A stretch of 64,000 nucleotides of DNA. Origin: an uncultured Desulfarculales bacterium. Lineage in GTDB: Bacteria; Desulfobacterota; Desulfarculia; Desulfarculales; JAHJDS01. The notes under the pieces are model-generated. The model was not told the origin of the DNA. It saw only the letters and a program-made list of their open reading frames with translations, and did not search any database. Position 1 is the stretch's first letter; every line of letters begins with the position of its first letter. Of this stretch, positions 3,225-40,845 are shown piece by piece. The stretch spans positions 107,092 through 171,091 of the forward strand of contig CAZMVB010000005.1 in NCBI GenBank assembly GCA_964569795.1. Reading direction: 5' to 3'. The position numbers and the translations under genes are program-made.

Positions 3225-3366
3225 AGGTCCAGATTGTGACTCGCCAGTTGATTTATAAAAAGGCGGACGGCGGGCATGACTATAATCGTGATACCGGTAC
3301 GCCTGGGCCATGCTAAAATTTTACTTGGTAAGGCTGACTGAACCTTTCATTTCACGGAGGGATGTG

Positions 3367-3924
3367 ATGAGACGGTTTTCAGTGGCTTTAGGCGTTGTGG
3401 CCGTAGGTTTGTTCATTTGCCTGCCTGCGGCCCGGGCGGCCCTGGACCCCATCCTGGCCGCGATCCGGTCCGGTGATCTGAAAGCGGTGGAGGCCAGGCT
3501 GGCGGCCGCACCGAAGTCGGTCATGGCCAAGGACTTCACCGGCCACACCGCCCTGCACTACGCCGCCAATTCCGGACGCGCCCGGATCGCCGCGCTCCTT
3601 TTGGCCAAGGGGGCCGACCCCAACGCCCTGAACATCGAGGGACGCTCGCCGCTGCATTTGGCGGCCATGCGCTGTTTTCTAGAGGTGGCAAAGGTCCTGA
3701 TCGCCAAGGGGGCCAAGATCAATCTGCGGGGTACGATGTTCGGCTCCACGCCGCTGCACGTGGCCGCCGGGTTCGGGTGTGTGAAGGTGATCGCCCTGCT
3801 CCTGGACAAGGGGGCCAAGACGGACGTGAAGGACAAGCAGGGCCTGACGCCCCTGGGCGTGGCCCAAAAGGACAAGATGAAGGCCGTGGTGGAGCTATTC
3901 AAGAAGCGCGGCGTGACCAGGTAG
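3367..3924 (+). CDS. Secreted ankyrin-repeat protein
   Basis: Signal peptide MRRFSVALGVVAVGLFICLPAARA and SD GGAGGG. Repeated ankyrin cores GHTALHYAA, GRSPLHLAA and GSTPLHVAA. Confidence 0.85.
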   Translation: MRRFSVALGVVAVGLFICLPAARAALDPILAAIRSGDLKAVEARLAAAPKSVMAKDFTGHTALHYAANSGRARIAALLLAKGADPNALNIEGRSPLHLAAMRCFLEVAKVLIAKGAKINLRGTMFGSTPLHVAAGFGCVKVIALLLDKGAKTDVKDKQGLTPLGVAQKDKMKAVVELFKKRGVTR

Positions 3925-3995: not shown

Positions 3996-4093
3996 GGGCG
4001 GGTCCCAATGGGCCGGATGATCGACTGATCCAGCTGATCGAGGCCGGCCAGGAGGACCTTCGAAGGTGAGTCTCACCAGAGGTCATTGAGACA

Positions 4094-5365
4094 GTGTTAC
4101 AAGAAGACCAAACTGCTGAACTTCTATTATGGTGCGAACAGGAATTGGGCGTAGAGCTACGCCAAATAAGAGGGAATTTGACAAAAGCATTAACACGGGC
4201 TTCAGCTGTCTGGGAACTATTAGTAATTGAAGAGGCTTCTAGGCTTGGAAAGGTGCAATATGAGCCGGACGCTGAAGGCAGCCCGGATCTATTTATTGAA
4301 TTCCCTAATGGGCGTCCCGTTTGGATCGAAATTAAATATCTGGCTAGGCGTTATGTCAAAGAAGAACAACAGACGCAAGAGGTTGCTAATTGGATATTTA
4401 ATGAGGCCAAGCGGCTTGGCGTACCACCTGAATCGGTCAAGCCGCGTTTCGGTCGTTTTGTTAGTGACAAAGGAAAATCAATTAGGATTTTACCGCAAAT
4501 TAATATGAGGAAGTTTTTCCTAAACGACCCAGAATTGCGCTACTTTTTCCGTAGGATAAAAATGTTTCCACATCACAATTTTTCTTGCGACCTTACTGAT
4601 TATACCATTTCGATTGATTATTGGCCTAAATTTCCATCATCAGGATATACTAGTTGGTCTGAATTACCTCTTGAACAACCAGCAATAGCCAAAGAGAATG
4701 CCATTTATAGGGCCTTGAGAGAAAAGGGTAAACAACACAAAGTCGAGGCTCCCCATGTAATATGCATTGGAAGCGATCAAAGCCCTGCATTAAATAGAAA
4801 AATTTATCAGGGTAATCTTGCTATTGAAAGAGCAATCGAATATGCTTTCAAAGATTATAGCTCCATTTCAGCCGCCATTATTGTCTTCATCGAATCAAAT
4901 ATTGATATTTTTGGCCAGGAAGAAGAGCGGAAGGCAGAGTTGAAAATATTTGAAAATCCAAGTGCAACACACCCACTTGAGGCTTCACAATTACATTTAT
5001 TAACAACAATGAACTTTAATAGACGGAAGTATACATCTACGCTGCCAAATAATGAGACTAACGACTTGGAACGTTTTCTGCGTGTATCAGGGTGCTTAAC
5101 TTGGAGGTCAACGGAAATGAGTGAATTTGTTGAAATCCCTTCTAACACACTGATGAGGATTCTATCAGGGAAAACCAATTTATATGATTCATTTCGTATT
5201 CGACCTGGTGATTTTCGAAGAATACCCTTTGAAAATGGATGGGCCATTCGGAGTGTTTCTATGAAAGAAGGAAATATTGAAAAGGGGGAAGATTCAAAGG
5301 TCGTATTGGAACTCGTTTCACCAATATTTAATCCATACAGGCCGCACAAAAAAAGTAAAGGTTAG
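4094..5365 (+). CDS. Hypothetical protein with a possible PD-(D/E)xK nuclease core, in an AT-rich islet
   Basis: 423 aa ORF that is clearly AT-richer than its flanks. The N-terminal segment SPDLFIEFPNGRPVWIEIKY fits a D...ExK motif. The rest is unrecognised. Confidence 0.65.
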   Translation: MLQEDQTAELLLWCEQELGVELRQIRGNLTKALTRASAVWELLVIEEASRLGKVQYEPDAEGSPDLFIEFPNGRPVWIEIKYLARRYVKEEQQTQEVANWIFNEAKRLGVPPESVKPRFGRFVSDKGKSIRILPQINMRKFFLNDPELRYFFRRIKMFPHHNFSCDLTDYTISIDYWPKFPSSGYTSWSELPLEQPAIAKENAIYRALREKGKQHKVEAPHVICIGSDQSPALNRKIYQGNLAIERAIEYAFKDYSSISAAIIVFIESNIDIFGQEEERKAELKIFENPSATHPLEASQLHLLTTMNFNRRKYTSTLPNNETNDLERFLRVSGCLTWRSTEMSEFVEIPSNTLMRILSGKTNLYDSFRIRPGDFRRIPFENGWAIRSVSMKEGNIEKGEDSKVVLELVSPIFNPYRPHKKSKG

Positions 5366-5462
5366 GCAGACGTTACTGCTAAAACAGGCTGGCTGTTTTC
5401 TGATAAAGGGACTTCTTTCTGCTGGCAGCGAATTTGCCGAATGTAATAGAGGCTGTCGGCCC

Positions 5463-6039: not shown

Positions 6040-8250
6040 TCAGGCCCGGGCCACTTGGACCAGGGCCGTGTTCAGGCAGGCCGCCCCGCCGCCGGAGTAC
6101 TCGTCCTTGGTTAGGGTGTTAGCGCATCCGCCCCGGTCGATCCCTGTCTCGTCCGGATCGTACCAGGCCCCCTCGAAGATGCAGACCACGCCGGGCATGA
6201 TCCGCTGGGTGACCCAGGCAGTGATCGCCACCCGGCCCCGATCGTTGAACACGTGGACCTCGTCGCCGGTCTTGATGCCGCGCGGCCCGGCGTCCATGGG
6301 GTTGATCCAGACCCGATGGGGCTCGACCTCCCGGAGCCACTCGACCTTGTACATCTCCGAGTGGACCCGGTTCCTGGGGTGCGGCGTCAGCAGTTGCAAG
6401 GGGTACTTGGCCGCCAGGGGGTCGTTCCGGTCCTCCCAGGTGGGCATGTACTTGGGGATGGGCGGGCACAGGGGGTTGTCCAGATCGGCCACCCGCTGCG
6501 AAAAGATCTCGATCTTGCCCGACGGCGTGTCAAAGGGGTGGTTGTCCGGATCCTGGATCTGCTTCCTGAAGGCGACGATGGGCTCATCCAGCTTGACCCG
6601 GTGGATCCCCTCGCGCCGGAACTTGTCAAAGTCAATGATCAGCGGCGCGGTCTCCGGGTTCTTGGTCACGAACTGGCGGAGGATGTCGTCCTCGGTAAAG
6701 GGATTGAAATCCTGGATGCCCAGCCGCTCGGCCAGCAGCCCGGCGATCTCCAGGTCGGACTTGCACTCGCCGATGGGCTCGATGGCTCGGTTGACAAAGG
6801 TGAAGTAGGGGCCCGAGGGCCAGGGCCGGGTCAGGTCGTTTCGTTCCATGGCGCTGGTCACGGGCAGCAGCAGGTCCGCGTATCGGGCCTGGGCGGTCAT
6901 GAACAGTTCATTGACCGCCAGGAAGTCGAGCTGTTTGAGGGCCCGGTCGGCCTTGTTGCTGTTGCCGGTCTGGTTGACGTAGTTGTTGCACATGGACCAG
7001 GCCATCTTGATGTCCGCCGGGTAGCCGCCCGCCCGCCCCTTCAAGATGGCGTCGAAGATCTTGTTGATGTGGATCCGCTTGACCACCCGCAGCCGGATGT
7101 CCAGGGTGCCCTTGACCCGCGGGCCGTCCAGCTCGACCGGGTTCTTGCCCGGCGGGATGGCCGACATCCTAAACATGTGGCCGATGGGGATGCCCATCAG
7201 TCCGCCGCCGGCCGAGCCGCCGGGGACGCCGACGTTGCCGGTCATGGCGCACAGGGTCATGGCGCAGCGGTTGTACTGCTCGCCCATGGCCGAGCGGGCC
7301 GGGCCCTGGCAGTCCATCAGGGCGGCCGGTTTGGTGGCGGCGTATTCCCGGGCCAGGGCCTGGATGGTCTCGGCCGGGACCCCGGTGATCGGGGCCGCCC
7401 AGGCCGGCGTCTTGGGCGTGCTGTCTTCGGCGCCCAGGACGTAATCCCGGAATCGGTCGAACCCGACAGTGTATCGGTCCAGGAAGGCCTGGTCGTGCAG
7501 GTCTTCGTCGATCATGACGTGGGCCATGGCCACCATCATCGCCGTGTCGGTCCCGGGGTAGATCGGGATCCACTGGTCGGCCAGCACGGCGGCCGTGTCG
7601 GTGTAGCGCGGCTCGACACAGATCATCCGGGTCCCGGCCTCCTTGGCCCGGATGAGGTGATACATGGTGTTGGTTCCGGAAATCATCCGGGCCGGGTCCC
7701 AGCCCCAGAGGATGGCCAGCTTCGAGTTGAGCAGGTCCTCCCGGCTGTGGCCGACCATGACCGACCCGTACTGGGTCAACGAGGCCCAGACCGCCCCCTC
7801 GGAAGAAATGTTGCCGTAGTGGGTGGTATAGCCGCCGAACTGGTTGAGCAGCCGGGCGGCGGCCAGGCCGCCCATGTGCAGGCTGGCCAGGTAGCCCCCG
7901 CCGGTCAGGAGCAGGATGGCGGCGTTGCCGTGGGTCTCCTTGACCTGTTTGAGCTTGCCGGCCAGGGTGTCCAGGGCCTCGTCCCAGGAAATCCGTTCGA
8001 ACCTGCCCTCCCCCTTGGCCCCGATCCGCTTTTGGGGGTATTTGAGGCGCTCGGGGTGATGCACGTACTGGCGCAGGGCCCGGCACCGGAGGCAGGTCCG
8101 GAGCTGGTCCGGCTCGGCGGCGTCGTCGCCCTCGACTCGAATGATGACGTTGTCCTTGACGTGGAGCCGCAAGGGACAGCGACCCCCGCAGTCAAAGGTG
8201 GAGGTCGTGCGGACGATCTTGACTGCCTGATCCGATCGTCGGCCGGTCAT
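6040..8250 (-). CDS. Molybdopterin oxidoreductase, DMSO reductase (DmsA/YnfE-like) catalytic subunit, no Tat leader
   Basis: Collinear resemblance to E. coli DmsA: FDCGGRCPLRLHV, RLKYPQKRIGAKGEGRFERISWDEA, C-terminal GGCANTLT. The start is set at ATG 8250 with SD AAGGAGG. The track extension to 8484 is R/P/S-rich and overlaps the upstream gene. Confidence 0.9.
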   Translation of the reverse strand: MTGRRSDQAVKIVRTTSTFDCGGRCPLRLHVKDNVIIRVEGDDAAEPDQLRTCLRCRALRQYVHHPERLKYPQKRIGAKGEGRFERISWDEALDTLAGKLKQVKETHGNAAILLLTGGGYLASLHMGGLAAARLLNQFGGYTTHYGNISSEGAVWASLTQYGSVMVGHSREDLLNSKLAILWGWDPARMISGTNTMYHLIRAKEAGTRMICVEPRYTDTAAVLADQWIPIYPGTDTAMMVAMAHVMIDEDLHDQAFLDRYTVGFDRFRDYVLGAEDSTPKTPAWAAPITGVPAETIQALAREYAATKPAALMDCQGPARSAMGEQYNRCAMTLCAMTGNVGVPGGSAGGGLMGIPIGHMFRMSAIPPGKNPVELDGPRVKGTLDIRLRVVKRIHINKIFDAILKGRAGGYPADIKMAWSMCNNYVNQTGNSNKADRALKQLDFLAVNELFMTAQARYADLLLPVTSAMERNDLTRPWPSGPYFTFVNRAIEPIGECKSDLEIAGLLAERLGIQDFNPFTEDDILRQFVTKNPETAPLIIDFDKFRREGIHRVKLDEPIVAFRKQIQDPDNHPFDTPSGKIEIFSQRVADLDNPLCPPIPKYMPTWEDRNDPLAAKYPLQLLTPHPRNRVHSEMYKVEWLREVEPHRVWINPMDAGPRGIKTGDEVHVFNDRGRVAITAWVTQRIMPGVVCIFEGAWYDPDETGIDRGGCANTLTKDEYSGGGAACLNTALVQVARA

Positions 8251-13509: not shown

Positions 13510-13959
13510 CTAGCGCACGAAGGTGTTGGCCACCCGTTTTGATTTCTTGAAGTACAAGATCCACAGCACCGACGCCACCATCCCGATGAAGTATAAGGGC
13601 AGGCCCCCCCGCGGCCCGACCCAAATAAGCAGGACCACCAAAGTAAGCCCGTACAAGATCAAATTCAGTCCCAGGCAGACGACAATGGTCCGAGGTCCCT
13701 TCACCCGGCGTCGATAGAGCGCCCACAAGACAACCAGGCTCAAGGCCAGATCCCAAATATAGCTCGCGAATATGATTACAATCAGGGTCTGGAGGACCCC
13801 ACTAGCCACCGCGACCATGTACGGGACGGCCTCGACGATATCCACCAAGGCAAACAGCACTGTTATGATCGTGTAAAATAATAGCCAACCGCCGAACCCG
13901 GACAACTCGTTTTCCCTGCCACGGCTGCTGGTTTGGGACATGACGATCTGATTATCCAT
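13510..13959 (-). CDS. Small 4-helix membrane protein, DUF2569/YdgK-like (paralog of 456-869)
   Basis: Start set at ATG 13959 (MDNQIVMSQ). The FGGWLLFY motif and the C-terminal YFKKSKRVANTFVR match the 456-869 protein. Confidence 0.8.
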   Translation of the reverse strand: MDNQIVMSQTSSRGRENELSGFGGWLLFYTIITVLFALVDIVEAVPYMVAVASGVLQTLIVIIFASYIWDLALSLVVLWALYRRRVKGPRTIVVCLGLNLILYGLTLVVLLIWVGPRGGLPLYFIGMVASVLWILYFKKSKRVANTFVR

Positions 13960-14077
13960 GGTTGCTCCCTTTGACAGGTTCACCGGACCGCCTGGGTAAA
14001 AACGGGAATACGTTTGTGGCGCCCTCTCGAGAGGCCGTCCGGGCCGCCCCGGCCACCTCTCTGGGCGGGATCGAGCC

Positions 14078-14371
14078 TCAACCTCGGATGGCGTTGCAGG
14101 AGGTCTCGCAACGCGTCTCCCTACGGTAAAAACGCCGCCGAACCCACCGGCAGACATGAGTTCCATTCAACCACTGGCACACCTTTTGAAGCACGGTGTG
14201 GGGCACCCGAACCGTTCTGCACACTCGATGGCACACCCTCTTGGCCAGCATCGTCCCCCCGTTGTTCCTCGCCGCCGAGGCCACCAGGGGCACGAACATC
14301 AGCCCCAGGGCGATCAGGGCGATCAAGACCCAGCCCATGCCGGCTCCCCACTTGACAGACTTGCCAGACAT
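14078..14371 (-). CDS. Secreted Cys/Arg-rich mini-protein CARP-C (short type, 6 Cys)
   Basis: Start at the second ATG (MSGKSVKWG), preceded by GGGAGGGG. The leader is nearly identical to B and D. Cys pattern C-x3-C-x13-C-x8-C-x13-C-x3-C. C-terminal AIRG. Confidence 0.8.
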   Translation of the reverse strand: MSGKSVKWGAGMGWVLIALIALGLMFVPLVASAARNNGGTMLAKRVCHRVCRTVRVPHTVLQKVCQWLNGTHVCRWVRRRFYRRETRCETSCNAIRG

Positions 14372-14925: not shown

Positions 14926-16170
14926 TCACCCCGCCGGGTTGACCACCCGTCCCATGAACAGGATCGTTCCGGTCCGGGTGTCCATCACCACGAACAGGAA
15001 GGGATGATCGGCCCGGAACACCGGCGGGCCGGACGGCGATCTCGTGGCGATGACCACGGCCGTGGCCGCGGCGGCCACGGTCCCGGCCTCGTTGACCTCG
15101 ATGAAGGCCTTGTGAAACACGCCGCTGATGTGCAAGTTCTTCTTTCTCCCGTCCATGCGAGAGAAATCGGCCTTGTCACCCTTGAAGGCGTCCTTGATCC
15201 CCAGGGCCTTGAGCGATTTTTTGAGGCTGATGGTCGGCGTGGTGACCTTGAACCGGGGCAGTGAGACCTGGACCACCCTCCCGGGGCGCACTGACGACAG
15301 CCACTTTTTCAGGTTGGCCGGGGTGAGGGCCCGTTCCAGGCCGGCCAGGCCGCCGGCCCGCTTGGGCAGCAGCACGAACATGGACAGGGACCGGTCGGCG
15401 TAAGGCATCTCCAGGACCTTGAGGGAGCCCAGATCGGCGTAACCGAACGGCTTGATGCCCCGACCGTTGGTCTGGGACATCATCTTGACCCGGACCTTTT
15501 TGTGGGGAGCGATGAAAAAGTCGGCCTCATGGGTCTTGGCCTTGTCGAACTTGAGCCGCCAGGTGCCCTTGAAGTACACGGCGTTGGTCAGCACCAGCGT
15601 GGTCAGGTTGGTGATCGACCCCGGTGGCAACAGGTCCTTGACCCTGTCCCGGGTCTTCTTGGCCGCCCAGGCGTTTATATTGCGACGCGAGGCCTCGGGC
15701 TGTGCTGCATAGTTCTGGGGAAACAGGGCGTTGCCATAGTTAACCTTGATCCTCTGCAAAAAGGATTTGAGAAAGGGATAGCCCTTCTGGGGAAACAGGG
15801 CGTTGGCGGTCAGCAGCACGGCGCCATTCCGGCCGGAGCGTTCCAGGCGCCGGATCAACCGGCCCAGGCGGAGGTGCCACGCGGCCTCGGGGCCCCTCAG
15901 GCCCAGGGCCGCGGCCATTTGACGCTGCGTCTCGTGGGCCGCCCCGGCCAGGGTCATGGACAGGGCCACGGTGATGCTGTAGGGCGAAAACACGATGTTG
16001 GCCGGGCCTTTGCGGAAGTCCTTGAGCCTGGTCAACTGGCCGTAGAGTTTGAGGGCAAAGGCGGTGTCCTTGCCGACCATGCGGCGCGGGATCGGGGCCA
16101 CGGCCGCGGCCGTGGACAGACCCAGGGTCAGGCTCACCAGGACAACGATCAGCAGTCGAACCGGTCTCAT
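14926..16170 (-). CDS. Secreted serpin (serine protease inhibitor), inhibitory-type hinge, predicted P1 Arg
   Basis: Signal peptide MRPVRLLIVVLVSLTLGLSTAAA. Serpin body and C-terminus FRADHPFLFVVMDTRTGTILFMGRVVNP. Reactive-centre loop EAGTVAAAATAVVIATR-S. Confidence 0.9.
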   Translation of the reverse strand: MRPVRLLIVVLVSLTLGLSTAAAVAPIPRRMVGKDTAFALKLYGQLTRLKDFRKGPANIVFSPYSITVALSMTLAGAAHETQRQMAAALGLRGPEAAWHLRLGRLIRRLERSGRNGAVLLTANALFPQKGYPFLKSFLQRIKVNYGNALFPQNYAAQPEASRRNINAWAAKKTRDRVKDLLPPGSITNLTTLVLTNAVYFKGTWRLKFDKAKTHEADFFIAPHKKVRVKMMSQTNGRGIKPFGYADLGSLKVLEMPYADRSLSMFVLLPKRAGGLAGLERALTPANLKKWLSSVRPGRVVQVSLPRFKVTTPTISLKKSLKALGIKDAFKGDKADFSRMDGRKKNLHISGVFHKAFIEVNEAGTVAAAATAVVIATRSPSGPPVFRADHPFLFVVMDTRTGTILFMGRVVNPAG

Positions 16171-16329
16171 GATTTCCCCCTGAAAAGAAGTTCCGGCCAT
16201 CGGCCCCAATGCCCTTTTGGCATCAGGATGAAATGGTTAGACCGAATCCGTGCCGTTCCGGTTCCCCTTTTTTTCCACCGGGCCGGATGAATGCGCTCGA
16301 TAATGAATGCCCCCCTGCCCCTGATGGCC

Positions 16330-17830: not shown

Positions 17831-19984
17831 ATGCCTTTGGACAGGGTCCTGAACCCGGAGTCAGTGGCCATTGTCGGAGCTTCCAAGGTCGAGACCAAGC
17901 GGGGTTTTCAGGCCCTGCGCACCCTGCTGGACGAAAAATTCGAGGGCCGGATCTACGCCGTCAATCCCAGGGAACAAACCATCCTCGGCGTCCCCTGCTA
18001 TGACAAGGTGTCGGATATCGAGGACCAGGTCGATCTGGTACTGATCACCACGCCGGCGGCGACCATCCCCGCCGTGCTCGAGGACTGCGGCAAAAAGGGC
18101 GTGGCCGGGGCGGTGATCATCGCCGGGGGTTTCGGCGAGCTGGGCGACGAGGGCAAGCAGCTCGAGGACGAGCTCATCGACGCGGCCCGCAAATACGGCG
18201 TCCGGGTCATCGGCCCCAACACCTCGGGCATGATGAACCTTACAAAAAACCTGAACCTGGTCGGCCTGCACGACGCCCCGGCCGGGGACATCGCCCTCAT
18301 CTCCCAGAGCGGCAACATGGCCCTGACCCTGATCACCGAGGCCAAGCTCAAGAGCCACAAGGGATTTTCGTACTACGTGGGCGTGGGCAACGAGTCGGAG
18401 ATCCATTTCCACGAATACCTCGAGTTTTTCAAAAACGATCCCGACACCAAGGCCATCCTGATGTACGTCGAGGGCCTGCGCGAGGGTCGGCGCTTTCTCC
18501 AGGAGGCCTACGAGACCACCCTGCACAAGCCCATCGTCCTGCTCAAGGGCGGACGCTCGCGCACCGGGAAACGCTCGGCCGGGTCGCACACCGGCGCCCT
18601 GGCCGGGATCTCCGAGGTGGCCCGGACCGCCTTCCAGCGGGCGGGCATCATCGTTGTCGAGAAATCGGACGCCCTGTTCCCGGTGGCCGAGACCCTGAGC
18701 AATCTGCCCCCGATCAAGAACAACCGGGTGGCCATCCTGGCCGACGGCGGGGGGCACGCCACCATCGCCGCCGACATCCTGAGCGACCGGGGTATTTCCA
18801 TACCGGAGATGACTGAAAAAACCCAGGACAAGCTGAAGAAAATCCTGCCCTTCACCGCCTCGGTGGTCAATCCGGTGGACGTGGCCGGGGGGACCGACGC
18901 CGATCCGTCCCTGTTCGCCGAGTGCGCCCGGATCATGCTCAAGGACCCCAATGTGGGCGGTCTGTTCCTGGTCGGCCTGTTCGGGGGGTACGGCATCCGG
19001 TTCGCCCAGAGCCTGGCCTGGAAGGAGGAGGACGCGGCCCATCAACTGGGCAAGCTGGTGGCCGAGCGGGACAAGCCGATCCTGGTGCACAGCCTGTACA
19101 GTTCGGCCAAGCCCCATGCCCTGGACCTCCTGCGCTACTACAAGATCCCGGTGTACGACTCCCTGGACGTGGCCTGCCGTTGCGTCGCCGCCTTGGCCGA
19201 ACGGGGCAGCTATCTCAAGGAATACCACGCCAAGGTCAGCTTCAAGTTCAAGTGGCAATCACACGCCAAACCCGAGGGACGCCAGATCATCGACCGGGCC
19301 CGGCAGCAGGGCCGGCGGACGTTGCTGGAACCCGAGGCCAGGAGCCTCTTCCGGTTGCACGGCGCGCCGGTGGGCGAGCACGCCCTGGCGACCACGACCG
19401 ACCAGGCCATCGAGATCGCCCGGAAACTGGGCGACAAGGTGGCCCTCAAGATCGTCTCGCCCAATATTCTGCACAAGATCGACGCCGGCGGCGTCTGGCT
19501 CAACCTCAGAAACGACATCGAGGTCGGCCGGGCCTTCGAGGAAATCATCGCCAGCGCCAGGCGCTACAACAACACGGCCGACATCCGGGGGGTGATGGTC
19601 ACCCCCATGGCCGAACCCGGACTCGAGGTCATCATCGGCACCAAGACCGACGATCAGTTCGGACCGGTGATCATGTTCGGACTGGGCGGGGTCATGGTCG
19701 AGGTCTTGAAGGACGTTTCATTCAGGGTCCTGCCCATCTCACCGCGCTCGGCCCGGGCGATGATCCATGAAATTCGGGCCTCGTCGGTCCTGGAGGGCTT
19801 CCGGGGCCGGCCGCCATATGATCAGGCCGCCCTGCAAAAGCTGCTGCTGATCTGCTCGGAGATCGTCGAGGCCTATCCGGACATCGCCGAGATGGACCTC
19901 AACCCGGTGATCGCCTATGAACGCGGGGCCCGGATCGTCGATGCCCGGGTGATCCTCAGGGACGAGGTGGCAGTGGCCACTTAG
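17831..19984 (+). CDS. ADP-forming acetyl/acyl-CoA synthetase (fused alpha-beta, NDP-forming)
   Basis: 717 aa with a CoA-binding N-terminus (VAIVGAS), a succinyl-CoA-ligase-like middle (SQSGN, phospho-His loop GSHTGALAG) and a C-terminal ATP-grasp domain. Confidence 0.9.
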   Translation: MPLDRVLNPESVAIVGASKVETKRGFQALRTLLDEKFEGRIYAVNPREQTILGVPCYDKVSDIEDQVDLVLITTPAATIPAVLEDCGKKGVAGAVIIAGGFGELGDEGKQLEDELIDAARKYGVRVIGPNTSGMMNLTKNLNLVGLHDAPAGDIALISQSGNMALTLITEAKLKSHKGFSYYVGVGNESEIHFHEYLEFFKNDPDTKAILMYVEGLREGRRFLQEAYETTLHKPIVLLKGGRSRTGKRSAGSHTGALAGISEVARTAFQRAGIIVVEKSDALFPVAETLSNLPPIKNNRVAILADGGGHATIAADILSDRGISIPEMTEKTQDKLKKILPFTASVVNPVDVAGGTDADPSLFAECARIMLKDPNVGGLFLVGLFGGYGIRFAQSLAWKEEDAAHQLGKLVAERDKPILVHSLYSSAKPHALDLLRYYKIPVYDSLDVACRCVAALAERGSYLKEYHAKVSFKFKWQSHAKPEGRQIIDRARQQGRRTLLEPEARSLFRLHGAPVGEHALATTTDQAIEIARKLGDKVALKIVSPNILHKIDAGGVWLNLRNDIEVGRAFEEIIASARRYNNTADIRGVMVTPMAEPGLEVIIGTKTDDQFGPVIMFGLGGVMVEVLKDVSFRVLPISPRSARAMIHEIRASSVLEGFRGRPPYDQAALQKLLLICSEIVEAYPDIAEMDLNPVIAYERGARIVDARVILRDEVAVAT

Positions 19985-20150
19985 ATTCGCGGGGTTTGGC
20001 GCAGATGGTGCGAACTTTAGAGCCGCGAGGGCACTGTGTATCTTTGAATTTCCGTGGCCAGCAGTGGCTACTTAGATTCGCGGGGCCGGCCAAGGGTGGT
20101 GCGAACCTCTCGGCCGCCAGGCCACGATGGATAAAGGAAATTCCAGGGGG
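19969..20150. repeat. Tandem repeat array 1 (2 units, ~91 nt)
   Basis: Unit consensus GGCAGTGGCCGCTCTTGATTCGCGGGG..GGTGCGAAC..GAGCCGCGAGGGCAC plus a variable tail. It begins inside the last codons of the acyl-CoA synthetase gene. Confidence 0.8.
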
Positions 20151-20181
20151 GGGCCGTCAACACCTATTTCGGAGGTAACTC

Positions 20182-20598
20182 ATGGAAAAAGTCAAGGAAT
20201 ACGCCTTTTCGGCCGTGCTGGACACCACCTTTGAGGAGGCCGTGGCGCGGGTCAAGGAGACCCTGAAAGACGAGGGCTTCGGGGTCTTGACCGAAATCGA
20301 CGTCAAGGCCACCCTCAAAAAAAAGCTGGACCAGGATTTCAGGAAATACGTCATCCTGGGGGCCTGCAATCCACCCTTTGCCTATCGGGCCGTTCAGGCC
20401 GACCTGGACGTGGGACTTCTGCTGCCCTGCAACGTCATCGTCTATGAGACCGACGATCAGAAGGCCTATATCGCGGCCATCAATCCCATCTCCGCGCTGC
20501 AGATAATCGAGAACCAGGAACTGCGCCAGATCGCCCAGGAGGTCTCGGGCAAGCTGGAAAAGGCAATCCAGGCGGCCAGCGGCAGTGGCCGCTCTTGA
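20182..20598 (+). CDS. DUF302 domain protein
   Basis: 138 aa. The sequence (VKETLKDEGFGVLTEIDV..., ILGACNP) matches my memory of the DUF302 family. SD GGAGG. Confidence 0.8.
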   Translation: MEKVKEYAFSAVLDTTFEEAVARVKETLKDEGFGVLTEIDVKATLKKKLDQDFRKYVILGACNPPFAYRAVQADLDVGLLLPCNVIVYETDDQKAYIAAINPISALQIIENQELRQIAQEVSGKLEKAIQAASGSGRS

Positions 20599-20880
20599 TT
20601 CGCGGGCTTGCTTCCGGGTAGTGCAAACCACTGAGCCGCGAGGGCACGACGGATTTGAAAAATTACCGTGATGGCAGCGGCAGTGGCCGCTCTTGATTCG
20701 CGGGGTGGGGTGCAGGCGGTGCGAACTCTAGAGCCGCGAGGGCACGGTAGGTTTTTATAATTCCCGTGATGGCAGCGGCAGTGGCCGCATCTAATTCGCG
20801 GGATTGGGTGCAGGTGGTGCGAACTCTAGAGCCGCGAGGGCAGGGTGGATGGTGGCCGTATCTGACTCGCGTAGCCGCCC
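20581..20880. repeat. Tandem repeat array 2 (3 units of 98/98/71 nt plus a partial unit)
   Basis: Unit starts are at 20581, 20679, 20777 and 20848. The first unit supplies the last codons and the TGA of the DUF302 gene. Confidence 0.85.
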
Positions 20881-20882
20881 CC

Positions 20883-21000
20883 TCAACCCCCCCGGTAAAA
20901 TCCGCCGTGGATCACGATTGACTTGCCTATCCGGAAAGCCCATGCGGCCCACCAAGATCATGGCCTCCTGACCGGCCCTGACTTCACCCCCAGGCTCGGG
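20883..21000 (-). pseudogene. Degenerate duplicate of the 3' end of the SDR gene at 21845-22633
   Basis: The reverse translation gives SIVIHGGFYRGG-stop, against SIVIDGGFYRGI-stop in the intact gene. Further upstream it gives EVRAGQEAMILVGRMGFPD against EVIAGWEATIPVGRLGFPDE. The two matching stretches are separated by a ~50 nt deletion and a frameshift. Confidence 0.65.
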
Positions 21001-21121
21001 CCCTTGTGTTTCGTGGCCTGGGGGTGTAATGAAAGGCGGGTATGACCACGGGACTGTCCCAGCCGCTCAGGTCAGGTTCCGAGGAAAAAATTCGCACCCT
21101 GACACCCTCGAGGAGACATTC

Positions 21122-21625
21122 ATGAAAGCACGGTCGGCCGCCATCGCCCTGATCATGGCCCTGATTTTGTCCCTGCACCTCATCGCCCCGGCGTCCGCCG
21201 CGTCAGACAAAGCCCAGATCAGATCAGTTATCAAGAACTACATCACCCTCCTGGCCAAGGGTGACATCCAGGGCGCCCTCCAATTAAAAATCAGAAAGCA
21301 GAGCATCCCGCCCCGGAACAGCTTCGAGTACCGGATGATCACCAAGCTGGCCGGGGCCTTTACCGGAATCGGTCAAATCCGGATCAAAGGCGATCGGGCC
21401 TGGGCCGTTCTCAACTTCGACCCCAAGGTAGCCGCGGATTTGGCCCAGCAGGACTATGCTTTTGCGCTCGACCAGGCCAAAAAGATCACCGACCCCCAAC
21501 CACGTGCCGACACGGTCGGGCACCTCAAGAAAAACAGAGACCGCGAGATTGCCAAGCGGATGAAAAGCTTCACCCAGCCCCGAATGCGTCTTCAAAAAAT
21601 AAGCGGCCATTGGATGATCCGCTAG
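21122..21625 (+). CDS. Secreted hypothetical protein (167 aa)
   Basis: Start set at ATG 21122 with signal peptide MKARSAAIALIMALILSLHLIAPASA. No family recognised. Confidence 0.7.
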   Translation: MKARSAAIALIMALILSLHLIAPASAASDKAQIRSVIKNYITLLAKGDIQGALQLKIRKQSIPPRNSFEYRMITKLAGAFTGIGQIRIKGDRAWAVLNFDPKVAADLAQQDYAFALDQAKKITDPQPRADTVGHLKKNRDREIAKRMKSFTQPRMRLQKISGHWMIR

Positions 21626-21627
21626 GC

Positions 21628-21843
21628 GGCGGTGGCCGCTTTTGATTCGCGGGGTCGCGCCCAGGTGGTGCGAACATCTGAGCCGCGAGGGCACGGTTGA
21701 TATGGGAAATTCCCTGGTGGCAGTGGCCGCTCTTGATTCGCGGGGTTGGGCGCAGTTGGTGCGAACCGCTGAGCCGCGAACGCACGGCGGATTTGTAAAA
21801 ATCTCATGATGGCATTTGCCACCTTGATTCGCGGAACCGCCCC
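21628..21843. repeat. Tandem repeat array 3 (2 units of ~91 nt plus a partial unit)
   Basis: Unit starts are at 21628, 21719 and 21811. The array begins 2 nt after the stop of 21122-21625 and ends at the stop of the SDR gene. Confidence 0.85.
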
Positions 21844-21844
21844 C

Positions 21845-22633
21845 TCAAATCCCCCGGTAAAATCCGCCGTCGATCACGATCGACTGGCCGGTGATGAACG
21901 CCGCCTGCTTTGAGGCCAGAAACGCGGCCAGGGCCCCGATCTCGTCCGGAAAACCCAGACGGCCCACCGGGATCGTCGCCTCCCAGCCGGCGATCACCTC
22001 GGCCGGACTGGTCCCCTTGTCCGCGGCCACCTTTTGGGCCAGCTGCTCCACCCGGGCCGTACGGGTGTAGCCCGGGCAGATGTTGTTCACGGTGATCCCG
22101 TCCGCGGCCCATTCAGTGGCCAGACTCTTGGCCAGGCCGACCACGGCGTTGCGCACGGCGTTGCTCAGGATCAATCCGTCCAGGGGCCTCTTCACCGAGA
22201 CCGAGGTCAGATTGATGATCCGGCCCCACCCGGCCCGGCGCATCAGCGGTCCGGCCGCCCGGATCAGGTTCAGACCTGACATGAAATTCAGGTCAACCGC
22301 CCGCTGCCAGTCGTCCAGGTCGAAATCCCCAAAAAAACCGCCGGGCGGTCCCCCGGCATTGGTCACCAGGATGTCCAGGCGACCGTACTTTTCGTGCACT
22401 TCCCGGACGAATTCAGCAGCCGCTGCAAAATCGGTCACGTCCAGGCCCTTGTGAAGAACCCTTGTCTTGTAACGGGCCGCAAGCTCACCGGCGGTCGCCT
22501 CAAGTTCCGCCTCAGAACGGGCGCACAGGGCCAGGTCAACCCCCTCGCCAGCCAACGCCTCGGCCACGGCCCGGCCTAAACCCTTACTTGAACCGGCCAC
22601 CAGGGCCGCCCTGCCCTCAAGTCCTAAATCCAT
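21845..22633 (-). CDS. Short-chain dehydrogenase/reductase (3-oxoacyl-ACP reductase-like)
   Basis: ALVAGSSKGLGRA (glycine-rich NAD(P)-binding motif) and NNICPGYTRT. ATG 22633 follows AAGGAGG by 5 nt. Confidence 0.9.
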   Translation of the reverse strand: MDLGLEGRAALVAGSSKGLGRAVAEALAGEGVDLALCARSEAELEATAGELAARYKTRVLHKGLDVTDFAAAAEFVREVHEKYGRLDILVTNAGGPPGGFFGDFDLDDWQRAVDLNFMSGLNLIRAAGPLMRRAGWGRIINLTSVSVKRPLDGLILSNAVRNAVVGLAKSLATEWAADGITVNNICPGYTRTARVEQLAQKVAADKGTSPAEVIAGWEATIPVGRLGFPDEIGALAAFLASKQAAFITGQSIVIDGGFYRGI

Positions 22634-22726
22634 GTCCACCTCCTTCAACCGGTACTTTAAATTTTCGTTTGTTCTCCCTGAGCCTTAACTTTAACTTAGC
22701 TCGTAACTCACTTTTATAATTGAATA

Positions 22727-30110: not shown

Positions 30111-30461
30111 GTCTGCCTCCACGGTGGATGTCTGCGGTCGTTGCAGGGGCCGGCGCATATTCCCTCCGGCCCTGGGAGCGAGTACCTAGTCCTCCCTTCG
30201 CGTTATTGCAAATGTATCTCAGTAGCCGAGGAAGAACAATGAAGCCCAGACCTCATTGACAGACCAAACTGCCCCCATTTCAGGGAAGCCATCGCTTCAG
30301 CCGCCGGGGCCCCTATTTATATTTATTTATTTTAATTGGCACTCCAGGATCGTCAGGCGGCCGTCAATCGGGATCCTCAGCCAGCCTGGCCGGGTCAAGG
30401 CAGGGCTTTCGGTTTCGCCTCGATTCCGATATACTGGAACGGTCAAACCTGGCGAGCGGCC

Positions 30462-30584
30462 ATGAAATCCTATCGCAAAGAGCGATGGTTCGAGGTGCCG
30501 AGCCGGCGGGCCTTCATCCACATCACCCCGCAGGTCGAGGAGTGCCTCCGGGAGAGCGGGATCAAGGAGGGCCTGTGCCTGGTC
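30462..30584 (+). pseudogene. yjbQ: yjbQ (UPF0047) 5' part, 41 codons, cut by element insertion
   Basis: [41 protein letters not shown], then 7 element-derived codons and a stop. The continuation [10 protein letters not shown]... lies at 37774. Confidence 0.8.
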
Positions 30585-32244
30585 AAGACGAAGCATATGG
30601 AGTTTTGACCTCCACTCCGACTCCCTTTCCAACAATCTTACCGGCCTTCGCCGCCGCCTTGGTATCCCCGTCAAGAGGACGTTCCGCCGCAGCATAGACG
30701 TCCCCCGACCGAGCCTGTAAATGGCCCCATATGGTCCCCAGGCGGCCGTAGGCCTCGAACTCGTATCGGTGTGGGTTCCCTCCCAGGAACTTGATGTAAA
30801 CGCCGAACCGGCGGCCACCCGGGCCTGTCCCACCAAACACCAGGTTGACCAGGTCCTGTAGTTCGTCGTCGGGCATGTCATTGAAGGCGACCCCCGAGGA
30901 AATGTAACTCTCGACTATCCGCCGTACCAGTTGGGCGTCTTGGCTGTTCCGTTTGGCTTCGATTTCGGACTCCCGAGGCAGTGCCAATAACTGCTCGTCG
31001 ATGGCAGTCAACTCCTTCTTGTGGTTGGCCAACCGAGATTCAAGCTTCTTGAGGTTTCGCTGGGCCTGATCGTCGGTGACAATTCCCTTCCCGATGGCAG
31101 CCACGATTCGGTCCATTTCTGTTTGGACCTGTCGGACCTCTTTGAAGTGGAACGCCCTCTTGTCCAGGAGTTCCTTGACCACCTTTTCACTCGACTCGTG
31201 GCCCTCGAACACCGCGGCACGGAAGTCACCCTGGTTCGACAACATCACGGCCAGTTCATCCAAGACGGCCCGCTCCAAAACCTCGGCGTTGATACTGTAC
31301 TTGTAGCCGTCGCCGGAGTGTGGCCGGTAATACCTAAGGCCCCCTCGGTTTGCCGTCCCGGTCAAGGCCTTGCCCGTGTCGGTGTCGAAAATCTTGCGGC
31401 CCAATAAGTACCGGTGCTTGATATGCCCCCTGGCGTAGGTCTTCCGGGCCTTGGCCCTATCCTTGATGGCCTGGATTGTCTCCTCAGGCAGGAGTGGAGG
31501 CACAGGAGTCGGGACGGTCTCGTCGATCCTCGCCCACTCCAACCTGAACCTCTGATCCCAAGTGGCCCCGGCGGTCTTGGTTAACACCCGCCAAAGGTAC
31601 TGCCCGTTCATGCCGAACTTTCGTCCGAGTTCGTTGAATCCGGCGTTGGTCTCCAGGTACTCCCTGGCTATGGCCTCTATCTTGGCCTTGGCCTCGGGGT
31701 CAACCTGCCAGCCGTCCTCCTGGGACCAGGTCCGGCCATAGGGCCTCTTGCCACAACTGGGCCTCCCCTGCCTGGCACTTTCGATTTTGCCCAAAACCGA
31801 TTTGTAGGCCTGCTGGCCGGCAAAGAGCTCCCCGGCCTCGACACTCATCCCCAACACGAAAAAGGGCTCGGGATTGGTCAGCTCGTACTCCATCGGTCCG
31901 ACAAAAAACCTGACCCCCTTCATCCGAAGTGCCTTCAGGTTACCCTTGTTCTTCTCGTTGTCCCGGCTCCACCGACTAATGTCCGCCACGATCACGGCGT
32001 CAACCCGGCCATCCAGAGCATCGGTCATCAGTCGGTCAAGCTCGGCCCTTTCCCAGTTGGCGGTGGCGTGTTCCTGCCCGCCGTACCAGTCGACCACCTG
32101 CCCCCCGAGCCGGTCTATTGTCTGCTTGAGGTACCTCCGTTGGGTCTCCAGGCTTGTCCCCCGGTCAGCCTGTGCCTCGGTGCTGACCCGGATCAGGGGG
32201 GCGAACTTGATCGGCTGTTCTACCACGGCCTCGCCCTTTTTCAT
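30583..32244 (-). CDS. Large serine recombinase
   Basis: 553 aa. N-terminal resolvase domain with the catalytic Ser context LIRVSTEAQ, then a recombinase domain and a coiled-coil C-terminal part. Its stop codon sits at the attL core. Confidence 0.9.
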
Positions 32245-33900: not shown

Positions 33901-34476
33901 TCACAGGCACACTTGGTCTTCCACGGCGGCGATCTCATCGGCCGTGATTCCAATGTACCGCCGGGTGATGGCAGGGGAGGAATGGCCAAACTTGGCTTGG
34001 ATCAGTTCAATGGGGATTCCTTTCTGCCGGGCCTGGTAGCCCCAGGTTTTCCGGAGGGTGTGTGTGCCACACCGTTCCTTGACCCCCACGGCCTCGCACC
34101 AGGACTTCATCAATGCCCAGGCCCGGACCTTGTCCAGGGGCTTGTCCGATCGGAGTGACTTGAACAGCCATTGGTCGGCCTCGGGATACCCCACCTTATC
34201 GAAGTACCAGGTCAAGGCCTCCTTGGCGCTGTCGTTGATGGTGATCTTGGCGTCCCGGTTGGTCTTGCCCTCCCTGATGGTGAAGTGGGGCCTGACTTCA
34301 TATTGGGCATCGAGGACGTCCCCGACCTTCAACCGGAGGAGGTCACCAACCCGCAGGGCAAAATTGATCCCCAGGACAAACAGCAGGTAGTCCCTCGGGT
34401 GGCCCTTGGCCTTGAGCATCGACCTGATGGCCATGATCTTTTTTTCGTCTCTGATGGGTTCGACTGCATTGGACAT
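33901..34476 (-). CDS. Tyrosine recombinase (phage-integrase family), minimal 191 aa form
   Basis: ALRVGDLLRLKVGDV (Arg I region), THTLRKTWG (H-x-x-R) and GHSSPAITRRYIG (catalytic Tyr region). Start set at ATG 34476. Confidence 0.8.
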   Translation of the reverse strand: MSNAVEPIRDEKKIMAIRSMLKAKGHPRDYLLFVLGINFALRVGDLLRLKVGDVLDAQYEVRPHFTIREGKTNRDAKITINDSAKEALTWYFDKVGYPEADQWLFKSLRSDKPLDKVRAWALMKSWCEAVGVKERCGTHTLRKTWGYQARQKGIPIELIQAKFGHSSPAITRRYIGITADEIAAVEDQVCL

Positions 34477-34606
34477 CACGGCATCTCCACTTAATGTTTG
34501 ATCCAATTATAGAGGGTTATATTATGCAAATCAAGCATTTTTTTGCCCCGGTGACCGGCCATTTTGAGAAATGGCTTTAACATCAACCTGTTAATGATCT
34601 GGGCTT

Positions 34607-36378: not shown

Positions 36379-36757
36379 GATAAGGTACTCCTTCGGGGAT
36401 GCAGCCTTGGGTCAGGAAGGATTGGTTTGCTCGGCCAGGCCAGATCGAAGCTAACATCTCCTGCCCAACCTCTCCTGATTCTTCCTGGCCAAGGGTGGTC
36501 CCTGCGGGACCACCTTGTTGCTTAGTAAAATAAGTCTCTGGGGAGGGATCAAGCTGAGCAAAGCAAGGCTTCCTGACCCAAGGCTTATTCTTAATAAGCA
36601 ACAGGATCATAAAATGATCATATCTACCTGAATTATTTTTGGCAAATTTTGATTGTAAAATCAACGCAGTACATTTTAAAGCATGATCATTGACTATCTG
36701 TAACCTGTTGATTTTAGGAAAGTGGATCATAATTCTACGGCCGAATCAAAAATGATG

Positions 36758-37717: not shown

Positions 37718-37773
37718 TTCACCACGCAGTTTGAAGGGAATGATTTTACATGCAGAACTTTGTGTGTTTGGTA

Positions 37774-38070
37774 AACGCCATGCACATTACGGCATCGGTA
37801 TTCATCAACGACGACGAGTCGGGCCTGCATCACGACTACGAGAAGTGGCTCGAAGGCCTGGCCCCTCACGCCCCGGTGAGCCAGTACCAGCACAACCGGA
37901 CCGGCGAGGACAACGCCGACGCCCATCTCAAGCGGCAAGTGATGGGCCGGGAGGTGGTGGTGGCCGTGACCGACGGCCGCCTGGACTTCGGCACCTGGGA
38001 GCAAATCTTCTACGGCGAGTTCGACGGCCGCCGCCGCAAGCGGGTCCTGGTCAAGATCATCGGGGAGTAA
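37774..38070 (+). pseudogene. yjbQ: yjbQ (UPF0047) 3' part, 98 codons
   Basis: [17 protein letters not shown]...[53 protein letters not shown] aligns with the C-terminal two thirds of E. coli YjbQ (from memory). It is preceded by 8 element-derived codons starting at ATG 37750. Confidence 0.8.
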
Positions 38071-38091
38071 CGATCCTTTGGGGGGGACGCA

Positions 38092-38949
38092 ATGGAGTTA
38101 GTTAAGCCCGAACGCATTTGGGTAAAAGACCACCCTTCCCTTAACGAAAAGTGGGTCCAGTCTATAATCGAGGACGACCCTTCAATCCTTGGCTTGGGTG
38201 AGCTTGATTTCAGGGACAAAGAACGCCGTCATCCTCGGGCTGGCCGGCTGGACTTGTTATTGGAAGACTCTGAGGCCAATCGCCGATATGAAGTTGAAAT
38301 TCAACTTGGGGCAACGAATGAAAGTCACATAATTCGAACTATAGAGTATTGGGACATCGAACGTAAAAGGTATCCACAATATGACCACTGCGCAGTCATT
38401 GTAGCCGAAGACATTACTAGCCGGTTCTTGAACGTAATTGGTCTGTTTAACGGATTCATTCCAATCGTTGCCATTCAATTTCAAGCTATGATGTTCAATG
38501 ACAAAATTGCCCTGATTTTTACAACAGTCTTAGACGAAATGACTTTGGGTGAAGATGAAGGAAACGGACCTCTGCCGAGAGTCGACAGGGGTTATTGGGA
38601 AACAAAACGGGGCACCAAAGAAACCGTTGCGCTAGCTGACGGAATTCTTGATTTAATCCATTCATTTTCTCCCGAATACGAACTAAATTATAACAAATAC
38701 TACATAGGACTTGTAAAGCAGGGGCAACCAAACAACTTTGTAATTGTCAAGCCAAAGAAAAAATATGCAGTAGTCGAAATTAAACTGGCCAAGACAGATG
38801 AAGTTAATGGCCAGTTGGAAGACAGTGATCTGGACGTGATCGATCATCATAAAAGTGGGAGATGGAGAATCAGGCTGAAAAAGAAAGATATTCTCGCAAA
38901 CAAGGAGTTGTTAACTGAATTGTTAAAAAAAGCCTCCAATGAATTTTGA
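38092..38949 (+). CDS. NucS/DUF91-like PD-(D/E)xK fold protein (hypothetical), AT-rich
   Basis: 285 aa. GRLDLLLEDSEANRRYEVEIQLG resembles a D...E.(K/Q) nuclease core. The IIRTIEYWDIERKRYPQYDH block is known to me from widespread uncharacterised homologs. Confidence 0.65.
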   Translation: MELVKPERIWVKDHPSLNEKWVQSIIEDDPSILGLGELDFRDKERRHPRAGRLDLLLEDSEANRRYEVEIQLGATNESHIIRTIEYWDIERKRYPQYDHCAVIVAEDITSRFLNVIGLFNGFIPIVAIQFQAMMFNDKIALIFTTVLDEMTLGEDEGNGPLPRVDRGYWETKRGTKETVALADGILDLIHSFSPEYELNYNKYYIGLVKQGQPNNFVIVKPKKKYAVVEIKLAKTDEVNGQLEDSDLDVIDHHKSGRWRIRLKKKDILANKELLTELLKKASNEF

Positions 38950-39131
38950 TAATAGAAACTGGACCGGGGCTAATGGGCGTTGTATTGTCGAGAGCGTAAA
39001 ATCAAGTTATATCGTCATAAGGCCAGACATTAACTTTCCATAAAAAGTTATGATTCCACAAAAGCCCCACCATCATCCATCACGGAAGGCGAAAAGTCAA
39101 TAGGGGGTATCGAGGCGGTTGGGATTTCTCC

Positions 39132-40421: not shown

Positions 40422-40595
40422 AAGGCCCCCCTGTATCGATCTTTATAGTATAACTCAAACTGGCCGAATTAGGAAGCCTGGCCGTGCGTGGTTTACAAGC
40501 GGCTGATCAATAATAACTTTTCCGTAGAAGTTAAGAATTTATATTGGATATTCACGAACTTGCGATTGAAAAGCTGGACTAGCCCCTCACCCCTT

Positions 40596-40622
40596 CCCTC
40601 TCCCCACCCGGTGGGGAGAGGG
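40596..40622. repeat. REP-like GC hairpin, copy 1
   Basis: CCCTCTCCCCAC-CCG-GTGGGGAGAGGG, a perfect 12-bp stem, preceded by CCCCTCACCCC. Confidence 0.7.
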
Positions 40623-40845
40623 AGACGTTCGGCCGGCCGCCGGAGTCGCCTTGCGGCCCGGCAGTCTGGGGCGCGGCTCAACCCTGGAGTTTATATACTG
40701 CGAAGCCGGAATGAAATGGAGGCGGCAAGCGCGAACGAGGAGTTGGCCAAGCACCAATCGGTTATCGCGAGTCAAGAGGCGCCCACTGGCGCCCGGTCAC
40801 CCCCCTTCCGGGGGGTGACCGCTTTGGTGCCAGTGCCGGCTCGCG

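Follow-up and report, generated by a model that had tools for sequence, protein, structure and literature searches.

A previously undescribed, non-coding repeat lies at the 3' ends of genes in a 64,000-nucleotide (nt) stretch of DNA from an uncultured Desulfarculales bacterium (GenBank assembly GCA_964569795.1, contig CAZMVB010000005.1, positions 107,092 to 171,091 of the forward strand), which we refer to in its whole length as the window. In its make-up it is closer to intergenic repeats already known than to a new kind of system. It forms three head-to-tail arrays at 19966-21843, all on the plus strand and made up of seven full and two partial units, and the family is dispersed, with a further copy elsewhere in the window and others in two related genomes. 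Its hairpin has been kept by compensatory change, its sequence is constrained block by block, and a copy that arrives at a gene can replace its terminal codons and bring a new stop with it. We think it probable, with real room for doubt, that this is a lineage-restricted interspersed repeat of the same type as mycobacterial interspersed repetitive units (MIRUs), BOX elements and repetitive extragenic palindromes (REPs), which has been amplified locally into arrays and is transcribed in 3' untranslated regions (3' UTRs). The traits that match an interspersed repeat are short units, a location at non-orthologous gene ends, an array period that differs between genomes, and the presence of degenerate and partial copies.

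The original prediction had placed three arrays at this site, built of a core of ~68 nt and an AT-richer tail of ~25 nt, and the present analysis bears out both points. The arrays are evident in the sequence itself. Tandem Repeats Finder reports array 2 at 20577-20842 (period 98, 2.7 copies, 84% matches) and array 3 at 21628-21834 (period 91, 2.3 copies, 80% matches), and array 1 was recovered at 19968-20151 by a separate repeat search. The pattern ATTCGCGG-N15-GTGCRAAC-N6-GCCGCSA matches precisely the seven full units, all on the plus strand, with 0 matches expected (100 shuffles). When the window was scored position by position, filters off, with a covariance model of the whole unit (R1), the seven full units reached 63-106 bits and nothing else exceeded 19 bits. 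Independent support for the division into core and tail comes from a related metagenome contig, L036, where the tandem units have a period of 68 nt and consist of the core without the AT-rich tail. The units are listed below; hairpin 1 belongs to the module of hairpin and adjacent motif that a second model (R2) describes alone, and hairpin 2 is TTCGCGG/CCGCGAR.

19966-20058, plus strand: unit 1a; hairpin 1 is GTGGC-AGTG-GCCAC; contains the last five codons (VAVAT) and the TAG stop of an acyl-CoA synthetase gene; R1 98.9 bits.
20059-20150, plus strand: unit 1b, the most diverged; hairpin 1 is down to AGC/GCT, with a single C-C mismatch in hairpin 2; R1 63.4 bits.
20577-20674, plus strand: unit 2a; a DUF302 gene ends within it, with the codons for SGSGRS and the TGA stop; R1 97.2 bits.
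20675-20772, plus strand: unit 2b; R1 106.3 bits.
20773-20852, plus strand: unit 2c, with a shortened tail; R1 81.8 bits.
20853-20874, plus strand: partial unit 2d; degenerate hairpin 1, then CTGACTCGCG; only 10.3 bits with R2.
21624-21714, plus strand: unit 3a; loop GGTG; begins right after the TAG of a 167-amino-acid (aa) secreted-protein gene; R1 95.1 bits.
21715-21805, plus strand: unit 3b; a U-G pair in hairpin 1 and an outer U-A pair in hairpin 2; R1 105.5 bits.
21806-21834, plus strand: partial unit 3c; TGGC-ATT-GCCA, then CCTTGATTCGCGG; R2 38.6 bits.

Identity between units is 72-93% in the core and 60-88% in the tail, so they are not fresh duplications. Units 2a-2d and 3a are also present in an independent assembly of the same sequencing run (SRR14802574; Logan contigs L034 and L035). 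This excludes an assembly artefact as the origin of the sequence, but the number of copies per array could be less certain. The contigs of that assembly break inside the arrays, exactly within units 2a, 2b and 3b, which indicates that the repeat fragments short-read assemblies and that the array copy numbers in the window are to be read with caution.

The family extends beyond the three arrays. With R2 the true copies, 14 in number, score 37-50 bits and noise reaches at most 11 bits. A search for the hairpin-plus-motif module revealed a tenth copy in the window:

~40700-40796, minus strand: solo copy of a second subtype; GGCGCC-AGTG-GGCGCC-TCTTGACTCGCG followed by ~60 nt homologous to L036 5003-5075; R2 37.4 bits.

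This copy stands directly after a GC-rich hairpin downstream of an unrelated 188-aa gene. The host bacterium is sulfate-reducer-like and its metagenome-assembled genome Thermodesulfobacteriota-like. L036, the closest available relative, whose synthetase is 89% identical, has three copies of the module downstream of its orthologue of the 167-aa gene, one degenerate unit being followed by tandem units within which the contig ends. At this orthologous site the unit type and the period differ between L036 and the window, which represent different genomes and not strains of the same species. In a second metagenome contig, L037 (synthetase 80% identical), a single copy follows immediately on the stop codon of an unrelated 102-aa gene. 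The solo copy and the first unit of L036 are at non-orthologous loci and share sequence beyond the module (...CGCGAT..CCGRTTG..TCGTYCGCGCTTGCCGC), and they therefore constitute a second subtype, type B. After the module, type A units continue with GGTGCGAAC and GAGCCGCGAGGGCAC blocks, with or without the AT-rich tail, and type B units with ...CGCGCTTGCCGC. The possibility raised in the original prediction that the units are found only here, as simple recent duplications, is contradicted by this fourth locus on the opposite strand and by the non-orthologous copies in the two related genomes.

There is no module in the relatives L038-L043 (synthetase 77-79% identical; 10-22 kb read) and no further copy in the Logan extension of the source genome (6 kb gained in L044, none in L045). 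The source genome as read amounts to ~70 kb and holds two loci. The pattern TTCGCGG-N15-GTGCRAAC-N6-GCCGC matched 28 metagenome loci, all of which are chance matches by R1 (at most 21 bits), L022 being coding sequence; four matches in viral contigs gave no R1 score, and the sole match in the genome collection, L001, in which the pattern is spaced N16 and not N15, is also due to chance. A comparison of translated repeat open reading frames (ORFs) with the protein database, aimed at spurious ORFs called over arrays elsewhere, found nothing, and blastn against plasmids and phages gave no match.

With regard to the surroundings of the dispersed copies, the 188-aa gene (40846-41412, minus strand) encodes a Tyr/Arg-rich secreted protein and contains an in-frame 60-nt tandem duplication at 40920-41039 (two copies, 96-97% identical) that doubles the 20-aa segment RVSRPQVNVRRINTVSRPTA. 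In L037 the solo module is followed at 6317-7697 by low-GC DNA with a DNA methylase and a DUF4928 protein; this segment is likely to be an acquisition of the restriction-modification type.

All 14 copies have in common a hairpin of 5-6 bp with the loop AGTG, then 1-3 nt and then TTGAYTCGCG. The module forms the invariant 5' part of the element, its motif reading YTTGAYTCGCG when one more base is taken in. The variants of the hairpin 1 stem (GCGGC/GCCGC, GTGGC/GCCAC, GTGCC/GGCAC and GGCGCC/GGCGCC) include the compensatory ones originally described, and hairpin 2 is, also as described, intact in six of the seven full units, the exception being unit 1b. The claim that covariation argues for selection on structure stands for hairpin 1, where 95.4% of cells in 13 copies are paired, both sides have changed in three of the five pairs, and the covariation score was reached by 0 of 500 shuffles; slid controls were 26-68% paired. 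The sample is small, with 14 copies from three genomes. Beyond hairpin 1 the results do not bear the claim out. Pairing in hairpin 2 of type A reaches 98%, but of the seven pairs five are invariant, and only the outer one is seen as U-G, U-A and C-G; being almost invariant, hairpin 2 is uninformative either way on structural selection. Two inner helices proposed by RNAalifold are ~80% paired and show no compensatory change. Minimum free energies on the plus strand are equal to those of shuffled sequence (z -1.0 to +0.9), and those on the minus strand are only slightly below the shuffles. Substitutions between units are clustered, with variable stretches lying between invariant blocks (windowed variance, p=0.0005), and the longest invariant run among units is ATTCGCGGG. 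It follows that constraint of some sort, or patchy gene conversion, acts on ATTCGCGGG, GGTGCGAAC and GAGCCGCGA.

The position of the copies relative to genes is regular. The genes around the arrays are as follows.

17831-19984, plus strand: ADP-forming acyl-CoA synthetase gene; unit 1a takes the place of the native C-terminal tail.
20182-20598, plus strand: DUF302 gene, between arrays 1 and 2.
20875-20985, minus strand: degenerate remnant of the 3' end of a short-chain dehydrogenase (SDR) gene; 75-82% identical to 21835-22000, with the partial-unit junction also copied.
21122-21625, plus strand: gene for the 167-aa signal-peptide protein, which has no Pfam family; between the SDR remnant and array 3.
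21845-22648, minus strand: SDR gene, convergent on array 3 and abutting it.

The copies run in the direction of the upstream gene at all five independent loci, whichever strand they are on. At four of these loci the start of the hairpin falls in the interval from 16 nt before the stop codon to the position right behind it; in the solo copy it comes ~50 nt after the stop. Two stop codons lie within the first unit of an array, in the linker after hairpin 1: the TAG of the synthetase gene in CTTAGATTC and the TGA of the DUF302 gene in TCTTGATTC. The 167-aa gene stops immediately before hairpin 1 of array 3, and the end of partial unit 3c and the stop of the convergent SDR gene are 10 nt apart. 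Five orthologues of the synthetase (78-92% identity) keep 10-12 residues after a conserved ILKDE; in the window ILKDE is followed only by VAVAT and the stop, encoded by hairpin 1 of unit 1a. This shows that the repeat overwrote the native tail of the synthetase. The orthologue at 92% identity, encoded on a 3,916-bp JGI contig, has a tail that is not derived from the repeat, and its locus is a candidate empty site for array 1. The gene after the synthetase is different in every relative (DUF302, a 149-aa gene, ApbA, radical SAM), and a search for homologues of the 167-aa protein returned only the protein itself.

Because the copies are co-oriented with the upstream gene at all loci, they are predicted to be transcribed as part of its 3' UTR. 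The same position could mean that the repeat is a selected, cis-acting RNA element, in which the AGUG-loop hairpin and UUGAYUCGCG bind a protein or RNA, block exonucleases or stall terminating ribosomes and so determine how stable the mRNA of the upstream gene is or how strongly it is translated, with the arrays providing a dosage effect. The co-oriented placement at stop codons would be expected of such an element, and so would compensatory change in the hairpin beside an invariant loop and 3' flank, together with block-wise conservation. There is also a precedent, as REPs near stop codons affect translation and those within 15 nt of the stop down-regulate it (PMC12306157). However, support extends to five base pairs only, with none for the remaining fold and a folding energy equal to that of shuffles. 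The genes beside the copies are unrelated to one another, L036 shows the tail to be dispensable, and the partial and degenerate units and the overwritten gene tail resemble a selfish or neutral repeat. We therefore regard a selected RNA element as rather unlikely.

Searches for known RNA and regulatory signals agree with the earlier remark that the repeat was not recognised as a described motif. Rfam (4227 families) gives no match at the gathering threshold over the window, and at E<=10 there are only two unrelated weak matches at 19900-21900, both outside the units. The suggestion that the units are serial terminator or attenuator modules is not supported: there is one weak terminator-like match, in unit 3a (GGCGGTGGCCGCT then TTTGATTCGC), with none in other units and no unit carrying a T tract after the stem, and terminator-like sites do not exceed those in shuffles (5 vs 2.4 +/- 2.0). 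No sigma-70-like promoter was found in any unit. The further candidate of the original prediction, a small structured RNA family, is a possible reading. These results bear on the proposal that the arrays are tandem genes for small regulatory RNAs, each unit having its own promoter in the AT-rich tail. Tandem arrays of small RNA genes exist in other bacteria and an AT-richer tail precedes each next unit, but no unit has a detectable sigma-70-like promoter or terminator or an Rfam match, the units of L036 lack the tail, and the first units overlap coding sequence, so that we consider this proposal extremely improbable. ARAGORN found no tRNA-like genes. Readings as tRNA-like, SECIS-like or T-arm-like elements, of the tail as a CsrA site (GGA), and as a sigma-54 promoter were weighed by eye and dropped, given this result, candidate stems that fail across units and the absence of the tail in L036. 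The units do not form a clustered regularly interspaced short palindromic repeat array, as every part of a unit has a homologous counterpart in the others, with 72-93% identity in the cores.

There are signs of rearrangement at the arrays. The degenerate copy of the SDR 3' end, whose similarity as a whole spans 20863-20985 just 3' of array 2, is, together with its copied junction, a record of an old duplication or recombination involving the arrays. We propose that unequal recombination or slippage between units lengthens and shortens the arrays and that the arrays mark, and probably promote, local rearrangement. A more specific mechanism would be site-specific recombination at the modules, which would then flank small mobile gene cassettes (the DUF302 gene and the 167-aa gene) in the way that attC sites do in integrons. 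Single genes do lie between the arrays, gene content after the synthetase differs in every relative, and a 962-nt segment from partial unit 2d to partial unit 3c is flanked by direct copies of the junction between unit and SDR gene. These flanking copies, however, are just 75-82% identical, as expected for an old duplication, and tandem units with nothing between them are not cassette-like. Inspection of the units revealed no RYYYAAC/GTTRRRY cores, the nearest sequence, TGCGAAC, departing from RYYYAAC; Pfam found no integron integrase (IntI) among the ~46 ORFs of the window, and the window's two recombinases are 9-12 kb away. Cassette sites are thus a very improbable explanation.

The interspersed repeat that we favour has counterparts in several known systems. 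MIRUs are units of 40-100 bp that form head-to-tail arrays at several intergenic loci between co-oriented genes, their mechanism of spread being unknown (Supply et al. 1997, summarised in PMC2734929). The repeat described here is similar in having units of 68-98 nt that are in tandem at three gene ends, with additional copies at 40.7 kb, in L036 and in L037. It differs in having no sequence similarity to MIRUs, in belonging to a different phylum, in its covarying hairpin with a conserved flanking motif, and in unit lengths (68, 91 and 98 nt) that keep no reading frame. MIRUs also take the direction of the genes beside them and overlap the stop and start codons of these; the likeness extends to the co-orientation at five of five loci and to the stop codon, which is inside the unit at two loci and abuts hairpin 1 at three. 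As a separate observation, a 60-codon ORF with a TTG start (19996-20178) spans array 1 and stops 3 nt before the ATG of the DUF302 gene; it recalls the small coupling ORFs described in MIRUs and may be fortuitous.

The BOX elements of Streptococcus pneumoniae, which are intergenic and have a predicted RNA fold, combine a conserved module with another that varies in its number of tandem copies. Our repeat shares the modular build, with a conserved module and variable tandem copies, and an RNA fold is predicted in both; unlike BOX elements it has no terminal pair of the boxA/boxC type, and its sequence and host lineage are other. REPs and the bacterial interspersed mosaic elements (BIMEs) that they form have a GTAG/GTGG head directly 5' of an imperfect palindrome and are associated with REP-associated tyrosine transposases (RAYTs) (PMC2817692). 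Their copy number is high (>100 per genome). Short GC-rich extragenic hairpins near gene 3' ends, with a variable stem and a fixed adjacent motif, are common to REPs and to the repeat studied here. In contrast, there is no GTAG/GTGG head 5' of the hairpin, GTGG instead sitting in the loop and 3' arm; all nine array copies are direct and on the plus strand, as opposed to the alternating orientation of REP clusters; and no RAYT or Y1 enzyme was seen among the ~46 ORFs, with two loci in the ~70 kb read. Of the candidates in the original prediction, a family like REPs or miniature inverted-repeat transposable elements is the one favoured, as an analogy in kind and not as membership of the REP family.

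A hairpin that covaries around an invariant loop and 3' flank is a classic recognition site of structure plus sequence. We infer that the hairpin and the adjacent conserved single-stranded motif serve as a handle for whatever copies the element, our best guess being a single-strand DNA enzyme of the HUH/Y1 type. In RNA, a hairpin close to the stop could act as REPs do, protecting the upstream mRNA or damping its translation; by this analogy it might plausibly influence how stable the mRNA is or how ribosomes behave at termination.

ISDra2, a member of the IS200/IS605 family, inserts 3' of the pentanucleotide TTGAT (PMC2806898). The repeat could be a non-autonomous derivative of an IS200/IS605-type element, like the palindrome-associated transposable elements, or a REP-like substrate of a RAYT, the hairpin binding the transposase, TTGAT being the cleavage or target motif, and inserted copies recreating the target to give arrays. 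A subterminal hairpin followed at a fixed distance by a short conserved motif containing TTGAT fits this scheme, as do the head-to-tail arrays and a stem that varies while loop and flank are constant. However, TTGAT is a resemblance of 5 nt only and not a test; conservation crosses it into TCGCG in every subtype, that is, across the supposed junction, so that no left or right end can be placed; and the arrays start with a hairpin and not with a bare target. No transposase genes were found here, neither Y1 transposase nor TnpB being detected in the window or at the loci, and the copies on the two strands follow gene direction, not one replication strand. We consider such a derivative doubtful. 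A bolder version of our proposal, which we likewise hold to be doubtful, is that hairpin(AGTG)+TTGAYTCGCG is recognised and cleaved by an undescribed mobility system, either a single-strand DNA system of the HUH/Y1 kind or one of recombinase type, which would home to the stop-codon ends of genes, rebuild their last codons, stack head-to-tail arrays and shuffle single-gene segments between them.

Several points weigh against an interspersed repeat. The strict co-orientation with genes and the block-wise conservation would equally fit a selected RNA function. No mobilising enzyme accompanies the copies, Pfam finding no Y1, RAYT or TnpB in the ~46 ORFs of the window, and neither a target-site duplication nor a clean empty site was seen. 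The family is represented by only 14 copies from three genomes, and the metagenome pattern required TTCGCGG and so missed CTCGCGG variants such as that of L036.

Other features of the window were noted. A UPF0047 (YjbQ-like) gene is apparently split by an insertion of ~7.2 kb at 30.6-37.75 kb, the N-terminal part (30336-30608) ending ...GLCLVKTKH and the remainder resuming at 37750-38070. At its edge the insert has a serine recombinase of 553 aa (30583-32244, minus strand); it also contains a tyrosine recombinase fragment of 201 aa (33901-34506), several ORFs without a Pfam family, and a 33-nt inverted repeat at 36403-36585 (88% complementary, 117 nt between the arms). Its recombinases are those 9-12 kb from the arrays, and the insert is ~3 kb from the solo copy. 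We rejected the solo copy as an end of this recombinase island, which is bounded by the UPF0047 halves at 30.6 and 37.75 kb. Two segments of low G+C content, 38000-40600 and 4000-5400 (40-44% compared with ~63% elsewhere), were probably acquired horizontally; one has a DUF5655 protein and a trypsin-like peptidase and the other a 423-aa ORF with no Pfam family. Additionally, there are genes for a bacterial serpin (427 aa, 14926-16209), an ankyrin-repeat protein (204 aa, 3310-3924) and two DUF2569 paralogues (456-869 and 13510-14166).

As it stands, this is a modest finding. For annotators of Thermodesulfobacteriota metagenome-assembled genomes, the repeat explains contig breaks, odd C-terminal tails (ending in VAVAT or SGSGRS) and local loss of synteny. 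As a tandem repeat at gene ends it provides a clean case from outside the mycobacteria, and the small conserved module, a covarying hairpin with an 11-nt motif, could be used to seek the machinery that spreads such repeats. Should the module prove to be the substrate of an enzyme or an element of control in 3' UTRs, it would be compact and open to testing.

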